Part shown: piece by piece, positions 2,472 through 54,830 of the stretch
Position numbering within the stretch: the stretch's first letter is position 1
Layout of the letters: every line of letters starts with the position of its first letter
Assembly: GCA_964599625.1 (NCBI GenBank)
Contig: CAZRGC010000004.1
Coordinates: 139,705-203,704 of the forward strand
Direction of reading: 5' to 3'
DNA length: 64,000 bases
DNA from: an uncultured Gammaproteobacteria bacterium
GTDB taxonomy: Bacteria > Patescibacteriota > Microgenomatia > UBA8517
Program-made: the position numbers and the translations under genes
Notes under the pieces: model-generated
The model's database searches: none
Seen by the model: only the letters and a program-made list of their open reading frames with translations
What the model was told of the DNA's origin: nothing

Positions 2472-3249
2472 AAAGTCAGGCAGGGTATTTTTTTATATCT
2501 TAATAAGAGGTTGGAAATGTTACGAAAACTTTGATCAATGCATAGATTCTGTACTTAATCAGACTTACACAAATTTTAAGATAATTTTTGTGGATGATAA
2601 CTCTAACTACACAAAGAAACAAAAGCAACATATTGCAAACAAATTAGAAGGGCACATTGTAGTTTTTAACTCTGCAAGGAAATATGCAATTTACAATCAG
2701 TACCATCTTATTCACAAGTTCGCCGATAATGACGATGCCGTTATAGTTAATCTGGACGCCGATGACCGGTTGTTGAATAAAAACGTTTTGTCATATCTAG
2801 GCAAAATTTACACAAAATACCCAAAATGCAACTTTACATATGGTGAGTGCTTGATTGAAGATGAAAATGGAGTTTCTAAAAACGTTTCCGGTAAGCTTCT
2901 GGAACATGCAAATCAAAAGTATCCACCTGATGTTGTAAATAAAAAGGCATACAGAAAGTTTCCTTTTCTGCCACTCCACCCACGAACATTTAAGGTCAGG
3001 ATGTTTAAAAAGATTAAAAAAGAGGATTTCAAACGTTCTGATGGATCATGGTTGAGATTTGCCGAAGATCAGAGTGTTTTCTTCCCGCTTCTGGAGATGA
3101 ACATAGAAGGGCTTTTGGTGATCAAAAAACCACTTTACATTTATAATGCCTCAAATACCAAATCTGATGTAAAGATAAATACACTCGCACTCTTGAGAGA
3201 CGAACTCGAGATTCGTAGAAAAAACATATATGAAAACATTGATATCTGA
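2443..3249 (+). CDS. glycosyltransferase family 2
   Basis: CIDSVLNQTYTNFKIIFVDDNS and a DxD (NLDADD) motif; start uncertain (overlaps the upstream gene by 29 nt). Confidence 0.7.
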   Translation: MHTNNFRVNKKSGRVFFYILIRGWKCYENFDQCIDSVLNQTYTNFKIIFVDDNSNYTKKQKQHIANKLEGHIVVFNSARKYAIYNQYHLIHKFADNDDAVIVNLDADDRLLNKNVLSYLGKIYTKYPKCNFTYGECLIEDENGVSKNVSGKLLEHANQKYPPDVVNKKAYRKFPFLPLHPRTFKVRMFKKIKKEDFKRSDGSWLRFAEDQSVFFPLLEMNIEGLLVIKKPLYIYNASNTKSDVKINTLALLRDELEIRRKNIYENIDI

Positions 3250-23542: not shown

Positions 23543-24634
23543 CTAATTATAGCTGTTAATTAATTTAGTTAAAATTTCCACCCCTTTAACTATATTTTCA
23601 AAGCTACAGTATTCGTTAGGTTTATGCATAACTTCCGGTTCACCAGGTCCGAATATGATGGCAGGAATCCCCATCTCCGTAAAAAATGGCATATCGCTTG
23701 ATCCTGTGAACTTTTTAACAGGAAAGCCTTGTTTTTTCATCAGCTTTACAACCATCTCGGTTTCTTGGGTATAAGCATAGCCGACGGGTTCATAAACATT
23801 TTCCAACAAACAATTCTCCGGAATGACTTTAGTTATTTCATCAATGGCTCTGCCGTGCATTTCCGGCACGGTTCTTATATCAAAAGTTGCATGACAAGTA
23901 TCGGGAAATTTGTTTGGTGACAAGGGATTTCCAGCACTTATAGAAGTTGCAACGCTAAGTGAGGGTGAACCTAAATGTTTGTTTTTGTATTTTCTTTGCC
24001 AAGTTTTTCCCAAATTTTCGAGATTTTTAATGACTTTGTACATGATAAGAACTGAGTGTTGGTTTTCTTTTATAGGACTACTACCATGACCCGACGCCCC
24101 TTTGGTTGTGATTTTCAAAAAGATATTGCCTTTGTGCCCCAAACAAAAGTAAGAAGAATTGGTGGGTTCGGTTACCACCGCTGAGATTTTTGTGTATTTA
24201 TTCAAATATTTATCTTTTAAAACTTTTGCCGTAATTTTTGTTCCGTGACCGTCAATTTCCTCACCTCCCGTAAAGGTGATAATGAGGTTACATTTGGGTT
24301 TATTAACCGAAAACTCTTTGGCCAAAGTTAATAGCATGGCAACCGATGCTTTGTTGTCACTTGCTCCAAGGCCGTAGACCTTTCTCCCAAGCTCTGTGGC
24401 GTCAAATGGGCCGTGAGTCCACTGATTTATGTTGCCGGGGCTTACAGTGTCTACGTGTGCGTTAAAGATGACACATTTTGCAGCGTCGTGACCTTCGATC
24501 TCCACAACAATATTACCTTCAAAGATTGAGGGCTTGTGTCCGTACGAGGTCAGGAGATTCAGAATGTACTCCTGAATCTCCGCCTCGTTTCCGGAAACTG
24601 AATTGATTTGGATTAACTTTTTAAGTATTTCCAT
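23543..24634 (-). CDS. M20-family metallopeptidase / N-acyl-amino-acid deacylase (ArgE/DapE-like)
   Basis: NAHVDTV and GASDNK metal-binding motifs; 363 aa. Confidence 0.85.
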   Translation of the reverse strand: MEILKKLIQINSVSGNEAEIQEYILNLLTSYGHKPSIFEGNIVVEIEGHDAAKCVIFNAHVDTVSPGNINQWTHGPFDATELGRKVYGLGASDNKASVAMLLTLAKEFSVNKPKCNLIITFTGGEEIDGHGTKITAKVLKDKYLNKYTKISAVVTEPTNSSYFCLGHKGNIFLKITTKGASGHGSSPIKENQHSVLIMYKVIKNLENLGKTWQRKYKNKHLGSPSLSVATSISAGNPLSPNKFPDTCHATFDIRTVPEMHGRAIDEITKVIPENCLLENVYEPVGYAYTQETEMVVKLMKKQGFPVKKFTGSSDMPFFTEMGIPAIIFGPGEPEVMHKPNEYCSFENIVKGVEILTKLINSYN

Positions 24635-24640
24635 ATTTTG

Positions 24641-25174
24641 TTACAGCTTTCTTATTATTACAGGAATATCGCAACAAAGTTTTCCTTGCGCTTTTGTATC
24701 CTGAAATTTTGGGCAGCTAACACATTCACCAAAGACTTCTTTCGGTAATTCTGTAGGATCTGTCAGTATCTCAGCCCCGTTATCCAAAAAAAGTTTGAGA
24801 CTTTTTTCATTGCACAAAGCAAAAAGATTTGCATTAGGGTATTTGGCCGAAGCCAAAGCTATAAGATCTTTGGTTATGGCATGTCCCACGCCTGATTTTC
24901 TAAAACCCTTATCTACAACAATTGCTCCCAACTCGACCCAGTTGTTGGGCCACACAAATGTAATAGCCCCGAACCCAACGGGGATAGCTTCTCTACCGTA
25001 GGACCAAGCTGCCACAGCGTTGCCCTCTTTTATAAATGTCTTGATATCCTCAGGACTTTTGGGAAGCATTGTTCCAGCCTCCATAGTCCATTTGGAAACC
25101 TTGGAAGCCAAAAAATTAATCACATACTCCGCAAACATCTCGTCTGTTTTTTGAATTTCATTTTCTTTATTCAT
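24641..25174 (-). CDS. GNAT-family N-acetyltransferase (possibly amino-acid N-acetyltransferase), Cys-rich C-terminus
   Basis: GNAT motif A LGAIVVDKGFRKSGVGHAI. Start trimmed to ATG 25174, which has a perfect SD AAGGAGGTGA 7 nt upstream; the longer track ORF would overlap the terminator. Confidence 0.75.
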   Translation of the reverse strand: MNKENEIQKTDEMFAEYVINFLASKVSKWTMEAGTMLPKSPEDIKTFIKEGNAVAAWSYGREAIPVGFGAITFVWPNNWVELGAIVVDKGFRKSGVGHAITKDLIALASAKYPNANLFALCNEKSLKLFLDNGAEILTDPTELPKEVFGECVSCPKFQDTKAQGKLCCDIPVIIRKL

Positions 25175-25197
25175 ATTTCTCACCTCCTTTCGAGCAC

Positions 25198-25452
25198 AAA
25201 AAAGCCCCTCTGAACTCCGACATGCGTCAGGATTCAAAGGGGCCTTTGGTAGGCGGTACCACCCTTTTTCGATTACCTTTAAACCAAAAATCCGGCTATG
25301 CGCCGGAAATTTTCAAATTAAAGGATAATCCTCATTATTTGAGTTCTCCGCTTAGCGACAAACTCTAGCTTATTTTTACGGTTAGCTTCCGTCGGTCATT
25401 TTGGACCGCTGCTCGTGGGGCGCGAACCCACTTATACGCATTTATTTAAATG
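25198..25452 (-). promoter_or_regulatory. T-box riboswitch leader (copy 2) upstream of GNAT-M20 operon
   Basis: Minus strand carries AAAGGGUGGUACCGCC (13/14 to the T-box core AGGGUGGNACCGCG) at 25253-25267. It is followed by a long intrinsic terminator (25204-25243, GCCCCUUUGAA.../...UUCAGAGGGGC) plus a U-tract ending 20 nt before the SD. Upstream AACCGUAA (F-box-like) and a stem-III-like hairpin UCCGGCGCAUAGCCGGA are present. Confidence 0.6.
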
Positions 25453-25458
25453 TAACCT

Positions 25459-25486
25459 ATAATAACACCTGTATATTTTTTGTCAA
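25459..25486 (-). promoter_or_regulatory. sigma70-like promoter for T-box leader 2
   Basis: TTGACA-N16-TATTAT on the minus strand, immediately after the recG stop codon. Confidence 0.45.
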
Positions 25487-27550
25487 CTATATCAAAGAAG
25501 CATTTGATAATTGCTCCGTAATTTGTGGGTATTTATCTGGGTCTTTGACTATTTCATCGGCCAGATCCTTAATTCTTTTTATAAGTTTGTGGTCGTTCCA
25601 GGCTGCGATTTTTAGTTCCGAAAACCCTGACTGCATAGTTCCAAATATTTCCCCCGGACCCCTGAGTTCCAGGTCAATTTCAGCCAATTCAAATCCTGAA
25701 TGGGTTTTTTCCATGGCTTTAAGTCGTTTGGAATATTTTATATTTGAAAACAGTAGGCAGTATGATTTTTGGGTGCCGCGACCAACTCTACCCCTAAGCT
25801 GATGAAGTTGAGCTAATCCAAATCTTTCCGCTGCTTCAATTATCATTATTGTCGCGTTTGGAATATCAATTCCCACTTCCACAACCGGCGTTGCAACAAG
25901 AATATCGGTTTTTTTATTTTTGAAGTCTGACAAGACCTGGTCTTTTTCTTTCACTTTCATCCTGCCGTGCAAAAGACCAAGTTTTCGGTCCCTGAACACC
26001 CTTTTTAATTTTTCATATTCCGATGTAACTGACTTCACGTCAGTTAGGGTTTCCGATTCAGAATCTTCAATCAGTGGACAAACCACAAAAACCTGAGACG
26101 CAGTTTCTTTAATTTGTTTTTCAACCCATGCGTAGGCACCTTTGCGCTTTTGTTCAGGAACAACCCAGGTCGTAACAACCTGCCTGCCTTTTGGGCTTTC
26201 TTTTAGAATTGATAAATTCAAATCACCGTACGTAGTTAGAGCAACGGTGCGCGGGATTGGTGTTGCTGTCATGGTTAGAACGTGAGGAGTACCCGACTTT
26301 TTGGCAAGATGAGCGCGCTGCTCTACACCAAAGCGGTGTTGTTCATCTATTACTACAAACGCCACCTTATCAAAACTCACTTTGCTGTGAATAAGAGCAT
26401 GAGTTCCAACAAAAATGTCAGTTCTTCCCAATTCCATCTTTTTGCTTGCCGAAGTTAGTAACGAAACTCTTACGTTAAAGGGTTCAAAAATTTTTTTGAG
26501 TGTTTCGTAATGTTGGTTTGCCAGGATTTGAGTAGGTGCCATAATAAGCGACTGATACCCATTTACGAATGCGGCAAAAGCTCCGGCAGCGGCCACAACC
26601 GTCTTTCCGCTACCAACATCTCCCTCCAGAAGTCTGTTCATCGGTGTTGGTTTTTCTAAATCAGACACAATTTCTTCAATTGCGATACCTTGTGAATCGG
26701 TTAACTCATAAGGCAAACTTTTTATAAAACTATTAAGCGCAGACCCGTCAATTTTTAACCTGTACTTAACTTTGTTTTGTTTCCAATTGAGTTTTCTGTA
26801 TTCACTTTTTAGTTGGAGGTTCAAAAGCTCGTTAAAGCCCAGCCTTTCGCGACCTTGTAAAGCATCAACTTCTTTTTGAGGAAAGTGAACCAAAGACAAG
26901 GCAGTCTTTAGATCTACGAGATTTTCCCTTTTAAGAATGTCTTTTGGTAAAAAATCTCTTATTTCCATACTTGGATCCTGGTATGCATTTCTTACAAGTG
27001 TTCTCAGCCATTTGGAGGATAGTCCAGCAGTTTCTGGATAAAGAGGAACCAGTTTGCCTGTATGATAAGTTTCACCGTCTTCTTCCTCCATAATTTCGTA
27101 GTCTGGTGAGGTGAGACAAAGTTTTCTGTTAAAAAAACCAACCTTACCGGAAAGCGAAACCAGACGTCCCGGATAAAGCATTTTGGTAAGAAATGGCTGG
27201 TTGAACCAAATAACCATAAGTTTACCAGTTGAATCTTCTACACTTCCTATTTGCATTCGTCTGCCTTTTTTGGAAAAAATGTTCGCGATAGAAATAATTT
27301 TGGCGTGAATTGTAACTGTCTCCCCAAGTCTAAGACCTTTTATGGTGGTTATTTGAGAGTAGTCCAGGTAGCGTGAAGGTACATGATAAAAAAGGTCGTT
27401 GATTGTTCTTATTCCCAGTTTTTCAAGTTTTTTGGAAAGAATTGGTCCAACTTTTGGAAGATCTGTAATAGAGGAGTTTAGATCCATTAGATTGTCAGGC
27501 GTATAACATATAGGGCAATATTGCGCTGACAATAAGTGCCAACATTGCAA
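25487..27550 (-). CDS. recG: ATP-dependent DNA helicase RecG
   Basis: Walker A GDVGSGKT, DEQH box VIDEQHRFGV, and the RecG wedge/helicase architecture. Confidence 0.9.
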   Translation of the reverse strand: MQCWHLLSAQYCPICYTPDNLMDLNSSITDLPKVGPILSKKLEKLGIRTINDLFYHVPSRYLDYSQITTIKGLRLGETVTIHAKIISIANIFSKKGRRMQIGSVEDSTGKLMVIWFNQPFLTKMLYPGRLVSLSGKVGFFNRKLCLTSPDYEIMEEEDGETYHTGKLVPLYPETAGLSSKWLRTLVRNAYQDPSMEIRDFLPKDILKRENLVDLKTALSLVHFPQKEVDALQGRERLGFNELLNLQLKSEYRKLNWKQNKVKYRLKIDGSALNSFIKSLPYELTDSQGIAIEEIVSDLEKPTPMNRLLEGDVGSGKTVVAAAGAFAAFVNGYQSLIMAPTQILANQHYETLKKIFEPFNVRVSLLTSASKKMELGRTDIFVGTHALIHSKVSFDKVAFVVIDEQHRFGVEQRAHLAKKSGTPHVLTMTATPIPRTVALTTYGDLNLSILKESPKGRQVVTTWVVPEQKRKGAYAWVEKQIKETASQVFVVCPLIEDSESETLTDVKSVTSEYEKLKRVFRDRKLGLLHGRMKVKEKDQVLSDFKNKKTDILVATPVVEVGIDIPNATIMIIEAAERFGLAQLHQLRGRVGRGTQKSYCLLFSNIKYSKRLKAMEKTHSGFELAEIDLELRGPGEIFGTMQSGFSELKIAAWNDHKLIKRIKDLADEIVKDPDKYPQITEQLSNASLI

Positions 27551-28812: not shown

Positions 28813-29904
28813 TTAATAGTTTTCTACAAAATCTTTTAAACCTTCAAAAAACTTAAGGCATGAAGAAATGCTTATCCACTCTGTTTCCGAATGTATCTCT
28901 CCACCCATTGGTTTCATCATAAGAACAGGAATATTGTATTTTGCAAAATGCCGAGCATCACTTGCACCATATGTATGTGTTACAACTATTTTTTTCTTGT
29001 AGACTTTTTCCATACTCTGCAAAAAAGTTCTAACCATTTCGTCTGATTCATCGGTGAAAGTCGGAAGGCCTGTAGAGGCTTTGGCCACCTCAACTCTTTC
29101 TGAAATCTTTTTTGCTATATCAGTCACCTTTTGTGTAATTTTTTCGATGCTATCAGATTCAGGATAACGAAAATCCAGTTTCATTACTGCCTCGGGGCAA
29201 ACTTGATTTAGCGAGATACCACCCTGTACCTGGCCTATATTCAAAGTTGTATTCCAATTTTCTTTCAGGCTGTTTTTGCCGTAAATCTTAAGAAGTTCAT
29301 GCCCAATCTTTATAATCGAGTCCAGAGCATTTTTTCCCATCCAAGGCCTGCTCGCGTGTGCAGGAGACCCTTTGGCAGTTAGGATTAGCTGACAAACGCC
29401 CTTAGCTTTATTTACAAAAGTTAAATTATCCCCTCCGTCGGGAACAATCAAACATTTGGGAACAATTTTAAGATTGTCGGCGACGAACTTTCCTCCATCG
29501 AACCCTCCCACCTCTTCGTCTGTGGTGATAATTAATGAAAAAGATTTTTTGGACTTTGACTCAATCAAATCGTTCAATATTGCCACACCCAAAGGTATGG
29601 AAAATTTCATATCACTTGCACCTCGGCCAAACAATTTATCACCCTTCGATACAGCTCTAAACTGGTCGGGTCTGGCTGCGACCACGTCCATGTGCACCAT
29701 ATATCCTAGTTCAGGTTTTGTGGTATCTGTGTTGCTTGCTATCAAAATTTCAGCATTTCCATTTTTCAGACGTTTGACTAGTGCTTTTTTGTGCAAGATT
29801 GATTTCACAAAGTCCAAAGCCTTTGAATTTTCGGGCACATTTCCGCTAACTGTTTCAAACGAAATCAATTTTGTTAACTGTTTTACAAATAAATCTTTGT
29901 TCAT
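28813..29904 (-). CDS. M20-family metallopeptidase / deacylase (ArgE/DapE-like), paralog of 23543-24634
   Basis: HMDVV and GASDMK motifs; same length (363 aa) as the other M20. Confidence 0.85.
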   Translation of the reverse strand: MNKDLFVKQLTKLISFETVSGNVPENSKALDFVKSILHKKALVKRLKNGNAEILIASNTDTTKPELGYMVHMDVVAARPDQFRAVSKGDKLFGRGASDMKFSIPLGVAILNDLIESKSKKSFSLIITTDEEVGGFDGGKFVADNLKIVPKCLIVPDGGDNLTFVNKAKGVCQLILTAKGSPAHASRPWMGKNALDSIIKIGHELLKIYGKNSLKENWNTTLNIGQVQGGISLNQVCPEAVMKLDFRYPESDSIEKITQKVTDIAKKISERVEVAKASTGLPTFTDESDEMVRTFLQSMEKVYKKKIVVTHTYGASDARHFAKYNIPVLMMKPMGGEIHSETEWISISSCLKFFEGLKDFVENY

Positions 29905-29952
29905 ATTCTATATGCGATTCTAAAACTTTGACGGGTCATCGTCAAAGTAAAC

Positions 29953-29974
29953 AAAAAAACCTCCTTGCGGAGGC
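29953..29974 (-). terminator. intrinsic terminator (GCAA tetraloop hairpin + U7)
   Basis: Minus strand GCCUCCGCAAGGAGGU followed by UUUUUUU. Confidence 0.6.
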
Positions 29975-30002
29975 TTGCCTTGGTTTAATGTTTCTTTAGC
30001 CA

Positions 30003-30062
30003 CTAAACGGCAACCCCGCTTGAGAGGTTGTAGTGATAGTGCCAGTTCGAAATAGTGTTCAT
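30003..30062 (-). CDS. candidate leader peptide (19 aa, MNTISNWHYHYNLSSGVAV)
   Basis: ATG lies 8 nt downstream of a TTGACA-N16-TATGAT promoter; the ORF ends about 30 nt before the terminator. Paralogous in layout and N-terminus (MNT..W.Y) to the cassette at 53379-53459. Confidence 0.3.
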   Translation of the reverse strand: MNTISNWHYHYNLSSGVAV

Positions 30063-30070
30063 ATTCCCCA

Positions 30071-30098
30071 ATCATAGCACAAAGCCTTTTCTTGTCAA
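30071..30098 (-). promoter_or_regulatory. sigma70-like promoter (TTGACA-N16-TATGAT)
   Basis: Near-consensus hexamers on the minus strand between the GNAT-like gene stop and the mini-ORF. Confidence 0.5.
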
Positions 30099-30114
30099 AA
30101 CTTGCCAGGTTTGG

Positions 30115-53510: not shown

Positions 53511-54830
53511 TTACTCAGTTAACATTTCGCGGCTAAACTCCAATCCTTTGTGTATCAATTCAATGTCAAAATTTTCGTCAATTCCGTGCATATTGCAGTC
53601 TTCGTTGCAAAGAGGAATCAAAAGCGTATCGATATTAAAGGCGTTTTTAAAATCTGCAACCACAGGTATGGCTCCTCCGACAAATTTTTTGTTTATTTTT
53701 TGTCCGTAAACCTTTTCCAATACAATTTTGGCTTCTTCATAAAATTTATTATTAGAATCAACTTTTATTGGTTCGTGAAATCCTCCAGCAGATAACGAAT
53801 ATTCAACATAATCTGGGGTATTTTCTTTTACATATTTTTTGAAACCTTCATAAACATCCTCCGGCTTTTGCGAGGTGACAATTCTAAAGTTAAGTCTGGT
53901 TTCGGCTTCTGCGGGAACAATGTTGGCATAACCCTGGCCAATATAGCCCGTATTAATGCCTGTTATCTGAATTGTAGGTTTGTTGCCGGTGAGCGTAAAG
54001 AAATCTACATTTTTTTCTCCCAGCAAACGTTTAACGCCGGCAAGTGCGGCAATATTTTCTGATTCTTTTTCCAAACATATGTTATTTTCCAAATCCTCGG
54101 GCAATATCGAATCCACGTCATTATAAAAGTCCGGATAAGAAATTGAGTTGTCGTCATTGAAAAGCTTGGAAAGAAATTTAGACATCTCGGTGCCGGCATT
54201 TGGAATTGCTCCTCCAAAAATTCCCGAATGCAAATTTGTTTTGCCGGTTTTGTATTTGAGTGTTACGTTAAAACCACCACGCAGAGAAACCTCTATTGTT
54301 GGTTTGCCGTTGGTAAGCTCGCCATCTGATATCAAAACAATGTCGCATTCCATTTCTTTCTGTTTATTTTTTATTATTCCGTAAAGTTCGCCGCTGCCTG
54401 ATTCCTCGTTGCCTTCCACCAAGAACTTAACATTGTATTTAAGTTTTCCGGCTTTAACTGCTTCTACCGCCGTCAATATGTGCATTAGTATTTGTCCTTT
54501 ATTGTCAACCACTCCTCTGCCGTAAAGCTTCTTTTCTCCAATGCGCAAGGCAAATGGTTCGGACTCCCAACCATCTTTGACAGAAGCCGGTTGAACATCG
54601 TAATGCCCGTAAATAAGCATTGTGGGAAGATTTACGTCTTTTACGTAAGATGCAAAAACAACCGGATTGGCATCCTCCGCTGTCCATATTTGAGCATCAA
54701 ATCCACCATCGGAAAGTATATTTTTAATCCATTCAACAGTTTTTTCCATCTCCCCGTAATACTTGGGGTTAGTGGAAATACTTTTGAAACTTATAAATTC
54801 AGCCAGTTTGTTTAAATAATCTTGATACAT
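53511..54830 (-). CDS. M20-family dipeptidase (PepV/DapE-like)
   Basis: MLIYGHYDVQPA, GVVDNKG and EGNEESG metal-site motifs; 439 aa. Confidence 0.8.
   Translation of the reverse strand: MYQDYLNKLAEFISFKSISTNPKYYGEMEKTVEWIKNILSDGGFDAQIWTAEDANPVVFASYVKDVNLPTMLIYGHYDVQPASVKDGWESEPFALRIGEKKLYGRGVVDNKGQILMHILTAVEAVKAGKLKYNVKFLVEGNEESGSGELYGIIKNKQKEMECDIVLISDGELTNGKPTIEVSLRGGFNVTLKYKTGKTNLHSGIFGGAIPNAGTEMSKFLSKLFNDDNSISYPDFYNDVDSILPEDLENNICLEKESENIAALAGVKRLLGEKNVDFFTLTGNKPTIQITGINTGYIGQGYANIVPAEAETRLNFRIVTSQKPEDVYEGFKKYVKENTPDYVEYSLSAGGFHEPIKVDSNNKFYEEAKIVLEKVYGQKINKKFVGGAIPVVADFKNAFNIDTLLIPLCNEDCNMHGIDENFDIELIHKGLEFSREMLTE

Follow-up and report, generated by a model that had tools for sequence, protein, structure and literature searches.

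A predicted tRNA-Arg-responsive, terminator-type T-box leader with an ultrashort Stem I upstream of a GNAT–M20 operon in a CPR-type bacterium

In the 64,000-nt stretch of contig CAZRGC010000004.1 analyzed here (hereafter "the window"), a short minus-strand operon follows recG and opens with a structured leader, which a first-pass annotation made from the sequence alone had read as a T-box riboswitch controlling an acetyltransferase–deacylase pair. The layout it described holds: a TTGACA-N16-TATTAT promoter (11/12 matches) lies after recG, and the leader of ~255 nt is followed by a GNAT acetyltransferase gene (GNAT2) with a Shine–Dalgarno (SD) sequence and then by an M20 metallohydrolase gene (M20-2), with gene identities assigned by Pfam/NCBIfam. 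The gap between the GNAT and M20 genes is 6 nt, and the phosphatase-family gene that begins 2 nt past the M20 stop is probably co-transcribed with them. The genes and signals of the locus are as follows.

25487, minus strand: 3′ end of recG, directly upstream of the promoter
25486-25481 and 25464-25459, minus strand: sigma-70-type promoter, TTGACA, 16-nt spacer and TG-extended TATTAT
25198-25452, minus strand: leader, upstream of the GNAT gene
25188-25183, minus strand: SD sequence AGGAGG; the GNAT start codon is the ATG at 25174
25174-24641, minus strand: GNAT acetyltransferase (GNAT2), 177 aa
24634-23543, minus strand: M20 metallohydrolase (M20-2) of the ArgE/DapE deacylase family, 363 aa
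23540-22917, minus strand: histidine-phosphatase-family gene (His_Phos_1)

Two further open reading frames (ORFs) were rejected. A TTG-start ORF of 198 aa that runs over the terminator (24641-25237) is a spurious extension, as the SD sequence belongs to the ATG at 25174 and homologues begin there; a plus-strand ORF (25401-25802), which runs antisense to the leader and to the 3′ end of recG, is unsupported.

The T-box core of the leader, AGGGTGGTACCGCC at 25265..25252 (minus strand), matches the T-box 14-mer at 13 of 14 positions, as first claimed. By itself the 14-mer is within chance at 3 mismatches, whereas the match of the whole leader exceeds chance. A default Rfam scan at gathering thresholds reported two tRNAs only in the window and no T-box; a permissive search with the T-box family RF00230 gave a full-model match (25445..25235, model positions 1-219) at 42.3 bits, with E = 4e-8 locally and 5.5e-6 across the whole window on both strands. 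The leader fold is also far more stable than that of shuffled sequence (z = −7.05).

The GNAT2 family is small (17 clusters among 5.8 billion proteins) and occurs in bacteria of the candidate phyla radiation (CPR) type, with source names including Candidatus Woesebacteria and Candidatus Saccharimonadales. Nearly all GNAT2 relatives with upstream sequence carry a homologous leader before the gene, and the promoters of these relatives hold an identical position relative to the leader. T-boxes had not been expected in CPR-like genomes, an expectation that did not survive: a single metagenome-based pattern scan gave 31 more loci, of which two are chance matches and the rest (about 29) are Arg, Tyr and Trp T-boxes, all sub-threshold in Rfam. 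We aligned 20 Arg-type leaders, to which the counts that follow refer. The elements of the window leader are these.

25439-25411, minus strand: ultrashort Stem I, with pairs G25439-C25411 and C25438-G25412, then an internal loop GUAUAA/GA, then a 5-bp helix GUGGG/CCCAC
25426-25420, minus strand: Stem I terminal loop UUCGCGC, 7 nt, which replaces 76 Rfam model positions
25424-25422, minus strand: predicted specifier CGC (Arg codon), invariant in 20/20 leaders
25408-25393, minus strand: minimized Stem II, a 5-bp hairpin with a conserved A-rich loop CAAAAU, with covariation
25391-25379, minus strand: Stem IIA hairpin, 100% paired, with one double change
25387-25384 with 25370-25367, minus strand: IIB pseudoknot, loop AGCU with AGCU, 90% paired
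25365-25341, minus strand: additional linker hairpin GAGUU-UGUCGC-UAA-GCGGAG-AACUC, double changes in 4/5 outer pairs
25333-25271, minus strand: conserved purines GAG (the "RAG" position), then extended Stem III (25330-25271), double changes in 6/10 outer Stem III pairs
25307-25286, minus strand: inner Stem III GC hairpin and U-run, flagged as terminator-like
25265-25240, minus strand: T-box sequence AGGGUGGUACCGCC and antiterminator, with A1 GGG/CCC, a 7-nt bulge UGGUACC (25261-25255) and A2 GCC(U)/(A)GGC
25244-25204 and 25203-25198, minus strand: intrinsic terminator, a 41-nt GC-rich hairpin (−28.6 kcal/mol, many compensatory pairs) followed by U6

This architecture is conserved across lineages whose GNAT proteins share only 50–60% identity. 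Of the 55 pairs that RNAalifold predicted, 28 carry compensatory double changes. We also specified a structure by hand (41 pairs: Stem I, Stem II, IIA, the IIB pseudoknot, the linker hairpin, outer Stem III and the antiterminator) and counted pairs directly: standard pairs fill 94.5% of cells, and double changes fall at 25 of the 41 pairs. On none of five measures did a shuffled control (0/500) match the alignment, and with the partners displaced by 1–3 columns pairing fell to 33–51%. Individual elements show the same pattern. All five Stem I helix pairs carry compensatory double changes; the Stem II alignment pair 81/90 occurs as UA, AU, GC and CG; and the A2 pair 288/333 is UA or CG, with 9 double changes. 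The IIB pseudoknot has one double change (L033), and L002 carries a re-matched variant of it. The purines that flank Stem III (GAG/AAG on the 5′ side, GAAAAA on the 3′ side) are invariant or near-invariant, and such RAG...AA purines around Stem III have been described for T-box discriminator domains (PMC7778990, PMC11297988).

Both conformers that the first-pass annotation had envisaged form on folding, the terminator at −28.6 and the antiterminator at about −6 kcal/mol, and since the antiterminator 3′ arm (25244-25240) doubles as the terminator 5′ arm, they are mutually exclusive. A canonical antiterminator of about −6 kcal/mol is possible in 20/20 leaders, with terminators ranging from −20 to −36 kcal/mol and ending in a U-run (U5-8) in 19/20; a terminator much stronger than the antiterminator is the usual energetics of T-boxes. 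The bulge reads UGGUAC[C/A] across the leaders and opens with UGGU in all of them. The terminator had been placed 20 nt before the SD sequence, a figure that proved approximate: the terminator is there, and the SD sequence lies 15 nt past its stem and 9 nt past its U-run, outside the alternative hairpin and unpaired in the switch. As the GC-rich hairpin ends in a U-run and leaves out the SD sequence, the leader is expected to act by transcription attenuation rather than SD sequestration.

The antiterminator loop itself carries UACCA (25246-25250), complementary to UGGUA of the bulge (25257-25261; both minus strand), and RNAfold favors this pairing. [quoted passage not shown]

The specifier codon, which the first-pass annotation had left to a comparison of homologous leaders, is most likely CGC: this triplet never changes, although the surrounding Stem I helix does (GUGGG/CCCAC, GCAGG/CCUGC, CCGGA/UCCGG, GUCUAC/GUAGAC). 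Stem I is a 5–6-bp hairpin with, in 19 of 20 leaders, a 7-nt loop N-U-CGC-R-N in which alignment positions C27-G28-C29 are invariant and the preceding U and following purine (G/A) near-invariant. The L002 loop is CGCA, and CGC is the sole triplet common to all loop variants. It sits, after U, at positions equivalent to 34–36 of an anticodon loop. Moreover, the loop triplet tracks the synthetase, because leaders with UGG plus a purine at the same loop position precede GNAT1–deacylase–TrpRS operons. At the other end of the leader, the bulge UGGU had been taken to imply a tRNA with A73, which agrees with the single readable tRNA-Arg gene (anticodon CCU, in member contig L028), whose 3′ end carries A73 and then CCA, matching UGGU.

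From the sequence comparisons we conclude that the leader is a functional, conserved T-box-type switch, and we put at roughly 85% the probability that it is a tRNA-Arg-specific T-box acting by transcription attenuation. By analogy with the T-box family, the anticodon of tRNA-Arg (ICG or GCG) would pair with CGC in the Stem I loop, with the mini Stem II and the IIA/B pseudoknot supporting that contact. When the tRNA is uncharged, its A73-CCA end would pair with the UGGU of the bulge and stabilize the antiterminator, and RNA polymerase would read through into GNAT2, M20-2 and the phosphatase gene; when it is charged, the terminator would form and transcription would end at about 25198. The tRNA elbow would remain uncontacted, since the distal Stem I platform is missing.

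Several observations weigh against this reading. The distal platform of Stem I (AG bulge, distal loop and interdigitated T-loops, which dock the tRNA elbow) is missing in the window and in all 20 Arg-type leaders, and this elbow-binding platform has been called essential in transcriptional T-boxes (PMC7583486). No longer Stem I is hidden upstream: the −10 element sits only ~20 nt from Stem I in the window leader and leaves no space for one. At the base of Stem I, the kink-turn (K-turn, GA motif) is degenerate in the window (GUAUAA/GA, with UAA in place of the expected UGA) and variable across the family (UGA/GA in L002, L028 and L038; UUA/UA in others). Stem II of the window leader has no recognizable S-turn, a longer S-turn-type Stem II (GAGAA...AGUA) being retained in L002 and in a second T-box leader of the window (copy 1, described below). 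The RF00230 score is less than half the gathering score of 93 bits. No tRNA-Arg with anticodon ACG or GCG was found in the window or in any fetched locus, the tRNA-Arg(CCU) of L028 being the only tRNA-Arg there, and one GNAT–M20–(ArgRS) locus, L003, whose GNAT is 58% identical, has no T-box leader. Thus, while the T-box antitermination reading of the leader stands (on the Rfam match, the mutually exclusive hairpins and the covariation), its description as canonical does not, given the lost distal Stem I, the mini Stem II and the low score. The score itself is low because 76 model positions, i.e., the whole distal Stem I, are swapped for 7 nt and because the linker and Stem III carry large insertions. 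Further, RF00230 is insensitive to leaders with an ultrashort Stem I, as a permissive scan of L001-L003 left undetected leaders that are visible on reading the sequence; across the relatives, ultrashort-Stem-I leaders score 43 bits or, mostly, go undetected.

The same deficits bear on two other readings of the leader. With the Stem I platform and the S-turn lost, the Rfam score sub-threshold and argS gone from the operon in the window's lineage, the leader might be a decayed and unresponsive T-box relic, reduced to a leaky constitutive terminator or to structure in the 5′ untranslated region. We consider this very improbable: compensatory changes have kept the architecture among the lineages with 50–60% identical GNATs, the specifier triplet, bulge and flanking purines are invariant, and differences among near-identical strains are limited to loops and to an insertion that falls between helices. 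Alternatively, T-boxes with a short Stem I have to date been linked to translational control, and the leader could be a class II-like translational T-box whose hairpin is a sequestrator. That version earns little credence, for the hairpin is GC-rich, U5-8 follows in 19/20 leaders, and the SD sequence is excluded from it, lying 9 nt downstream and unpaired.

The identity of the tRNA allows a further rival. Every Stem I loop also holds GCG (GCA in L002) one base 3′ of CGC, and the tRNA-Ala gene in the window encodes A73, compatible with UGGU; both facts count against an arginine specifier and would suit a T-box that answers tRNA-Ala. Against alanine, the synthetase downstream in relatives is always ArgRS and never AlaRS; the base after GCG in the window and L001 is C rather than the purine typical of specifiers, whereas G/A comes after CGC in 20/20 leaders; and CGC, not GCG, fills the positions equivalent to 34–36 of the 7-nt loop after U. 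On balance a tRNA-Ala switch is highly unlikely, and tRNA-Arg remains the preferred ligand.

The linker hairpin and the inner Stem III hairpin fall outside this argument over Stem I. The linker hairpin recurs in copy 1 and in long-Stem-I Tyr leaders and, on that distribution, is a lineage-specific insertion. The inner Stem III GC hairpin and U-run are kept in the lineage's Arg and Tyr leaders and not in copy 1; the hairpin resembles an intrinsic terminator or pause signal and might gain time for tRNA binding. Because both features are shared with long-Stem-I Tyr leaders, they are lineage traits and not compensation for the truncation.

Set against the class I T-boxes of Firmicutes (e.g., Bacillus subtilis tyrS and glyQS), the Arg leader shares the 14-mer in a 7-nt antiterminator bulge whose UGGN pairs with the tRNA NCCA, the mutually exclusive antiterminator and intrinsic terminator, a specifier followed by a purine, the IIA/B pseudoknot, a purine-flanked Stem III and, in relatives, control of an aminoacyl-tRNA-synthetase operon. 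It differs in having no AG bulge, distal loop or elbow platform, in carrying the specifier in a 7-nt terminal loop rather than in an internal Specifier Loop with an S-turn, and in its 5-bp Stem II with an A-rich loop, its extra linker hairpin and its extended Stem III with a GC hairpin and U-run. Actinobacterial ileS T-boxes are reportedly known, from Sherwood et al. (2015), with an intermediate or "ultrashort" Stem I. Like these class II switches, the Arg leader has a natural truncation of Stem I without an elbow motif and keeps Stem II and IIA/B, which presumably compensate at the anticodon; unlike them, it has a terminator with a U-run and a free SD sequence in place of SD sequestration, an Arg (in a sister leader, Trp) in place of an Ile specifier, and a CPR-type in place of an actinobacterial host. 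Published accounts hold that transcriptional T-boxes "generally require" a long Stem I with an elbow-binding motif, and that an intermediate or ultrashort Stem I is typical of translational, mostly actinobacterial ileS T-boxes in which Stem II and IIA/B compensate (PMC7583486, PMC11297988, PMC7778990). In Mycobacterium tuberculosis ileS, the integrity of Stem II is reported to be essential (PMC11297988), whereas here Stem II is minimized. We found no report of T-boxes in the literature on CPR, Patescibacteria, Saccharibacteria or Microgenomates, which does not prove absence, and nothing on T-boxes together with argS and its specifier. That T-boxes in CPR-type phyla fall under Rfam detection (68–82 bits for long forms, ultrashort forms mostly undetected) probably accounts for our finding no report of them.

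The genes behind the leader in relatives make its target less odd. The first-pass annotation had called control of an acetylase/deacylase pair unusual, which is partly explained by an ancestral argS context: in most relatives the leader drives either GNAT–M20–argS (L002, L007-L011, L013, L024) or argS directly, ArgRS standing without the GNAT–M20 pair in L034 (behind a small ORF) and L028 (behind two hydrolase-like ORFs). In the window, L001 and L004-L006, the phosphatase-family gene stands at the argS position, and no argS lies within the 64-kb window. On this comparison the Arg leader is at root an arginyl-tRNA-synthetase regulon whose argS was lost in the lineage of the window.

What the two enzymes do is less clear-cut. 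GNAT2 has a significant Pfam GNAT match, and by NCBIfam profile, PDB sequence and fold alike it matches best the short GNAT domains of ArgA/NAGS (PRK07757/PRK07922; 5YGE/5YO2; 2R8V), with a template-modeling (TM) score of about 0.65–0.70 for the predicted model against NAGS/ArgA. It falls under the ArgA cut-offs (40.9 vs 154 bits for PRK07757; 23.9 vs 180 bits for PRK07922). M20-2 is a clear M20 enzyme with a dimerization domain, whose closest solved structures are DapE and ArgE; against TIGR01910 (ArgE/DapE) it reaches 190.8 bits, below the 217.6-bit cut-off. In the C-terminus of GNAT2 (residues 151–168) stand four family-invariant cysteines (C-x2-C ... CC), where the model is less confident, with a predicted local distance difference test (pLDDT) score of about 61–63; this motif suggests a metal site.

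To our knowledge, GNAT and M20 enzymes are paired in amino-acid metabolism in ArgA/ArgE and in a D-to-L conversion pathway of Geobacillus, neither of which fits fully. Linear arginine biosynthesis through ArgA/ArgE resembles the present case in that GNAT2 is nearest to ArgA/NAGS, M20-2 belongs to the ArgE/DapE family and the switch would sense arginine; it differs in that the family cut-offs are far off (40.9 vs 154; 146 vs 460 bits), other arg genes are missing (neither the operon nor any fetched locus shows argB/C/D/F/G/H) and GNAT2 has its four-Cys motif. In the Geobacillus pathway, a GNAT amino-acid N-acyltransferase and an M20 N-acyl-amino-acid deacylase are encoded side by side in an operon (bioRxiv 10.1101/2022.03.03.481873). 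The likeness is the GNAT and M20 pairing in one operon; the difference is an enolase-superfamily racemase, which is absent from all loci here. We know of no T-box control or synthetase-gene linkage in that pathway. Most likely, GNAT2 and M20-2 act on an arginine-related N-acyl amino acid and help to restore the pool of usable arginine, drawing on a form that is N-acylated or unusable for another reason, with low confidence in the specific chemistry.

The Arg leader has sister T-boxes for two other amino acids, one of them in the window itself.

31034-30845, minus strand: copy 1 T-box leader, RF00230 47.3 bits, upstream of GNAT1
30801-30115, minus strand: GNAT1, a divergent GNAT-fold gene (hhalign 84% probability; all fold matches are N-acetyltransferases)
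L043 3956-4031, L020 1112-1198, L015 1179-1263, L021 1373-1447 and L026 6630-6704, same strand as the T-box: cognate tRNA genes in related contigs

Copy 1 has an ultrashort Stem I, GGUGAG-GGAAUGGA-CUCACC, with a loop G-GAA-UGG-A and a bulge UGGC, together with a good K-turn (UUGA/GA) and a canonical S-turn Stem II; its specifier is likely UGG (Trp). Relatives of GNAT1 stand in GNAT1–AstE/AspA-like deacylase–TrpRS operons, and the Stem I loops of L046 and L039 end in UGG-G. Related contigs also carry Tyr T-boxes (specifier UAC) with a long Stem I and discriminator halves that almost match those in the Arg leaders; these canonical-looking leaders (L036, L035, L020, L043) score 68–82 bits, still under the 93-bit gathering score. 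In relatives, a Tyr T-box (and tRNA-Tyr) lies upstream of the homologous M20–TyrRS genes. Taken together, Arg, Tyr and Trp share a T-box-controlled triad in which an acyltransferase-like protein and the cognate synthetase are joined by a deacylase, either M20 or of the unrelated AstE/AspA type.

What would be new here, judged from sequence, and escaped the first-pass annotation is a minimal decoding module on a terminator-type T-box, an Arg specifier and a recurring acyltransferase/deacylase/synthetase regulon. That these amount to a distinct, previously unannotated minimal terminator-type T-box class in CPR/Patescibacteria, which would read the tRNA through nothing more than an anticodon-loop-like specifier hairpin, the mini Stem II and IIA/B (no elbow contact), with an acyltransferase/deacylase/synthetase and sometimes tRNA regulon, is a tentative proposal that we regard as possible rather than probable. 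In the current model of transcriptional T-boxes, a long Stem I provides the platform for quick tRNA capture before polymerase reaches the terminator, and a short one is tolerated solely by translational switches, which are slower (PMC7583486); a conserved terminator-type family whose Stem I, and often Stem II as well, is 5 bp long would challenge this long-Stem-I rule. So small a natural decoding module would be useful for structural work and engineering. At 42–82 bits, under the Rfam threshold, CPR-type T-boxes are invisible to standard annotation. The Arg/Tyr/Trp operons, in turn, hint at uncharacterized amino-acid handling in organisms believed to be without most biosynthesis: if the regulon is real, an unrecognized acylation/deacylation route may manage Arg, Tyr and Trp pools, with salvage of N-acyl amino acids or the clearing of D-amino acids that poison synthetases as candidate roles.

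Some smaller observations concern the related loci. In related contigs, a cognate tRNA-Tyr or tRNA-Trp gene follows the T-box terminator on the same strand, ahead of the synthetase operon, and such T-boxes appear to control transcription of the gene for their own ligand. In L045 the cognate tRNA lies just upstream of 1139, with no T-box seen before it. Among near-identical strains, L004 has a 27-nt leader insertion (about 2768-2794) right after Stem IIA, and the differences in the L005 leader are confined to hairpin loops. In L003, an opposite-strand tRNA-like fragment (2948-2985, minus strand, upstream of 3001) adjoins the gene in the leader's place.

Within the window, two further M20-family genes occur, one directly upstream of tyrS (28813-29904, minus strand) and one at 53511-54830 (minus strand) that weakly resembles M20-2 (29% over 138 aa). 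The 210-nt gap between GNAT1 and M20-1/tyrS (29905-30114, minus strand) holds a promoter-like TTGACA-17-TATGAT and a strongly folding RNA of ~112 nt (−32 kcal/mol) with a GC hairpin and U7 at its end. It was considered as a degenerate Tyr T-box or tRNA and rejected, as it shows no similarity, Rfam match, T-box core or tRNA.

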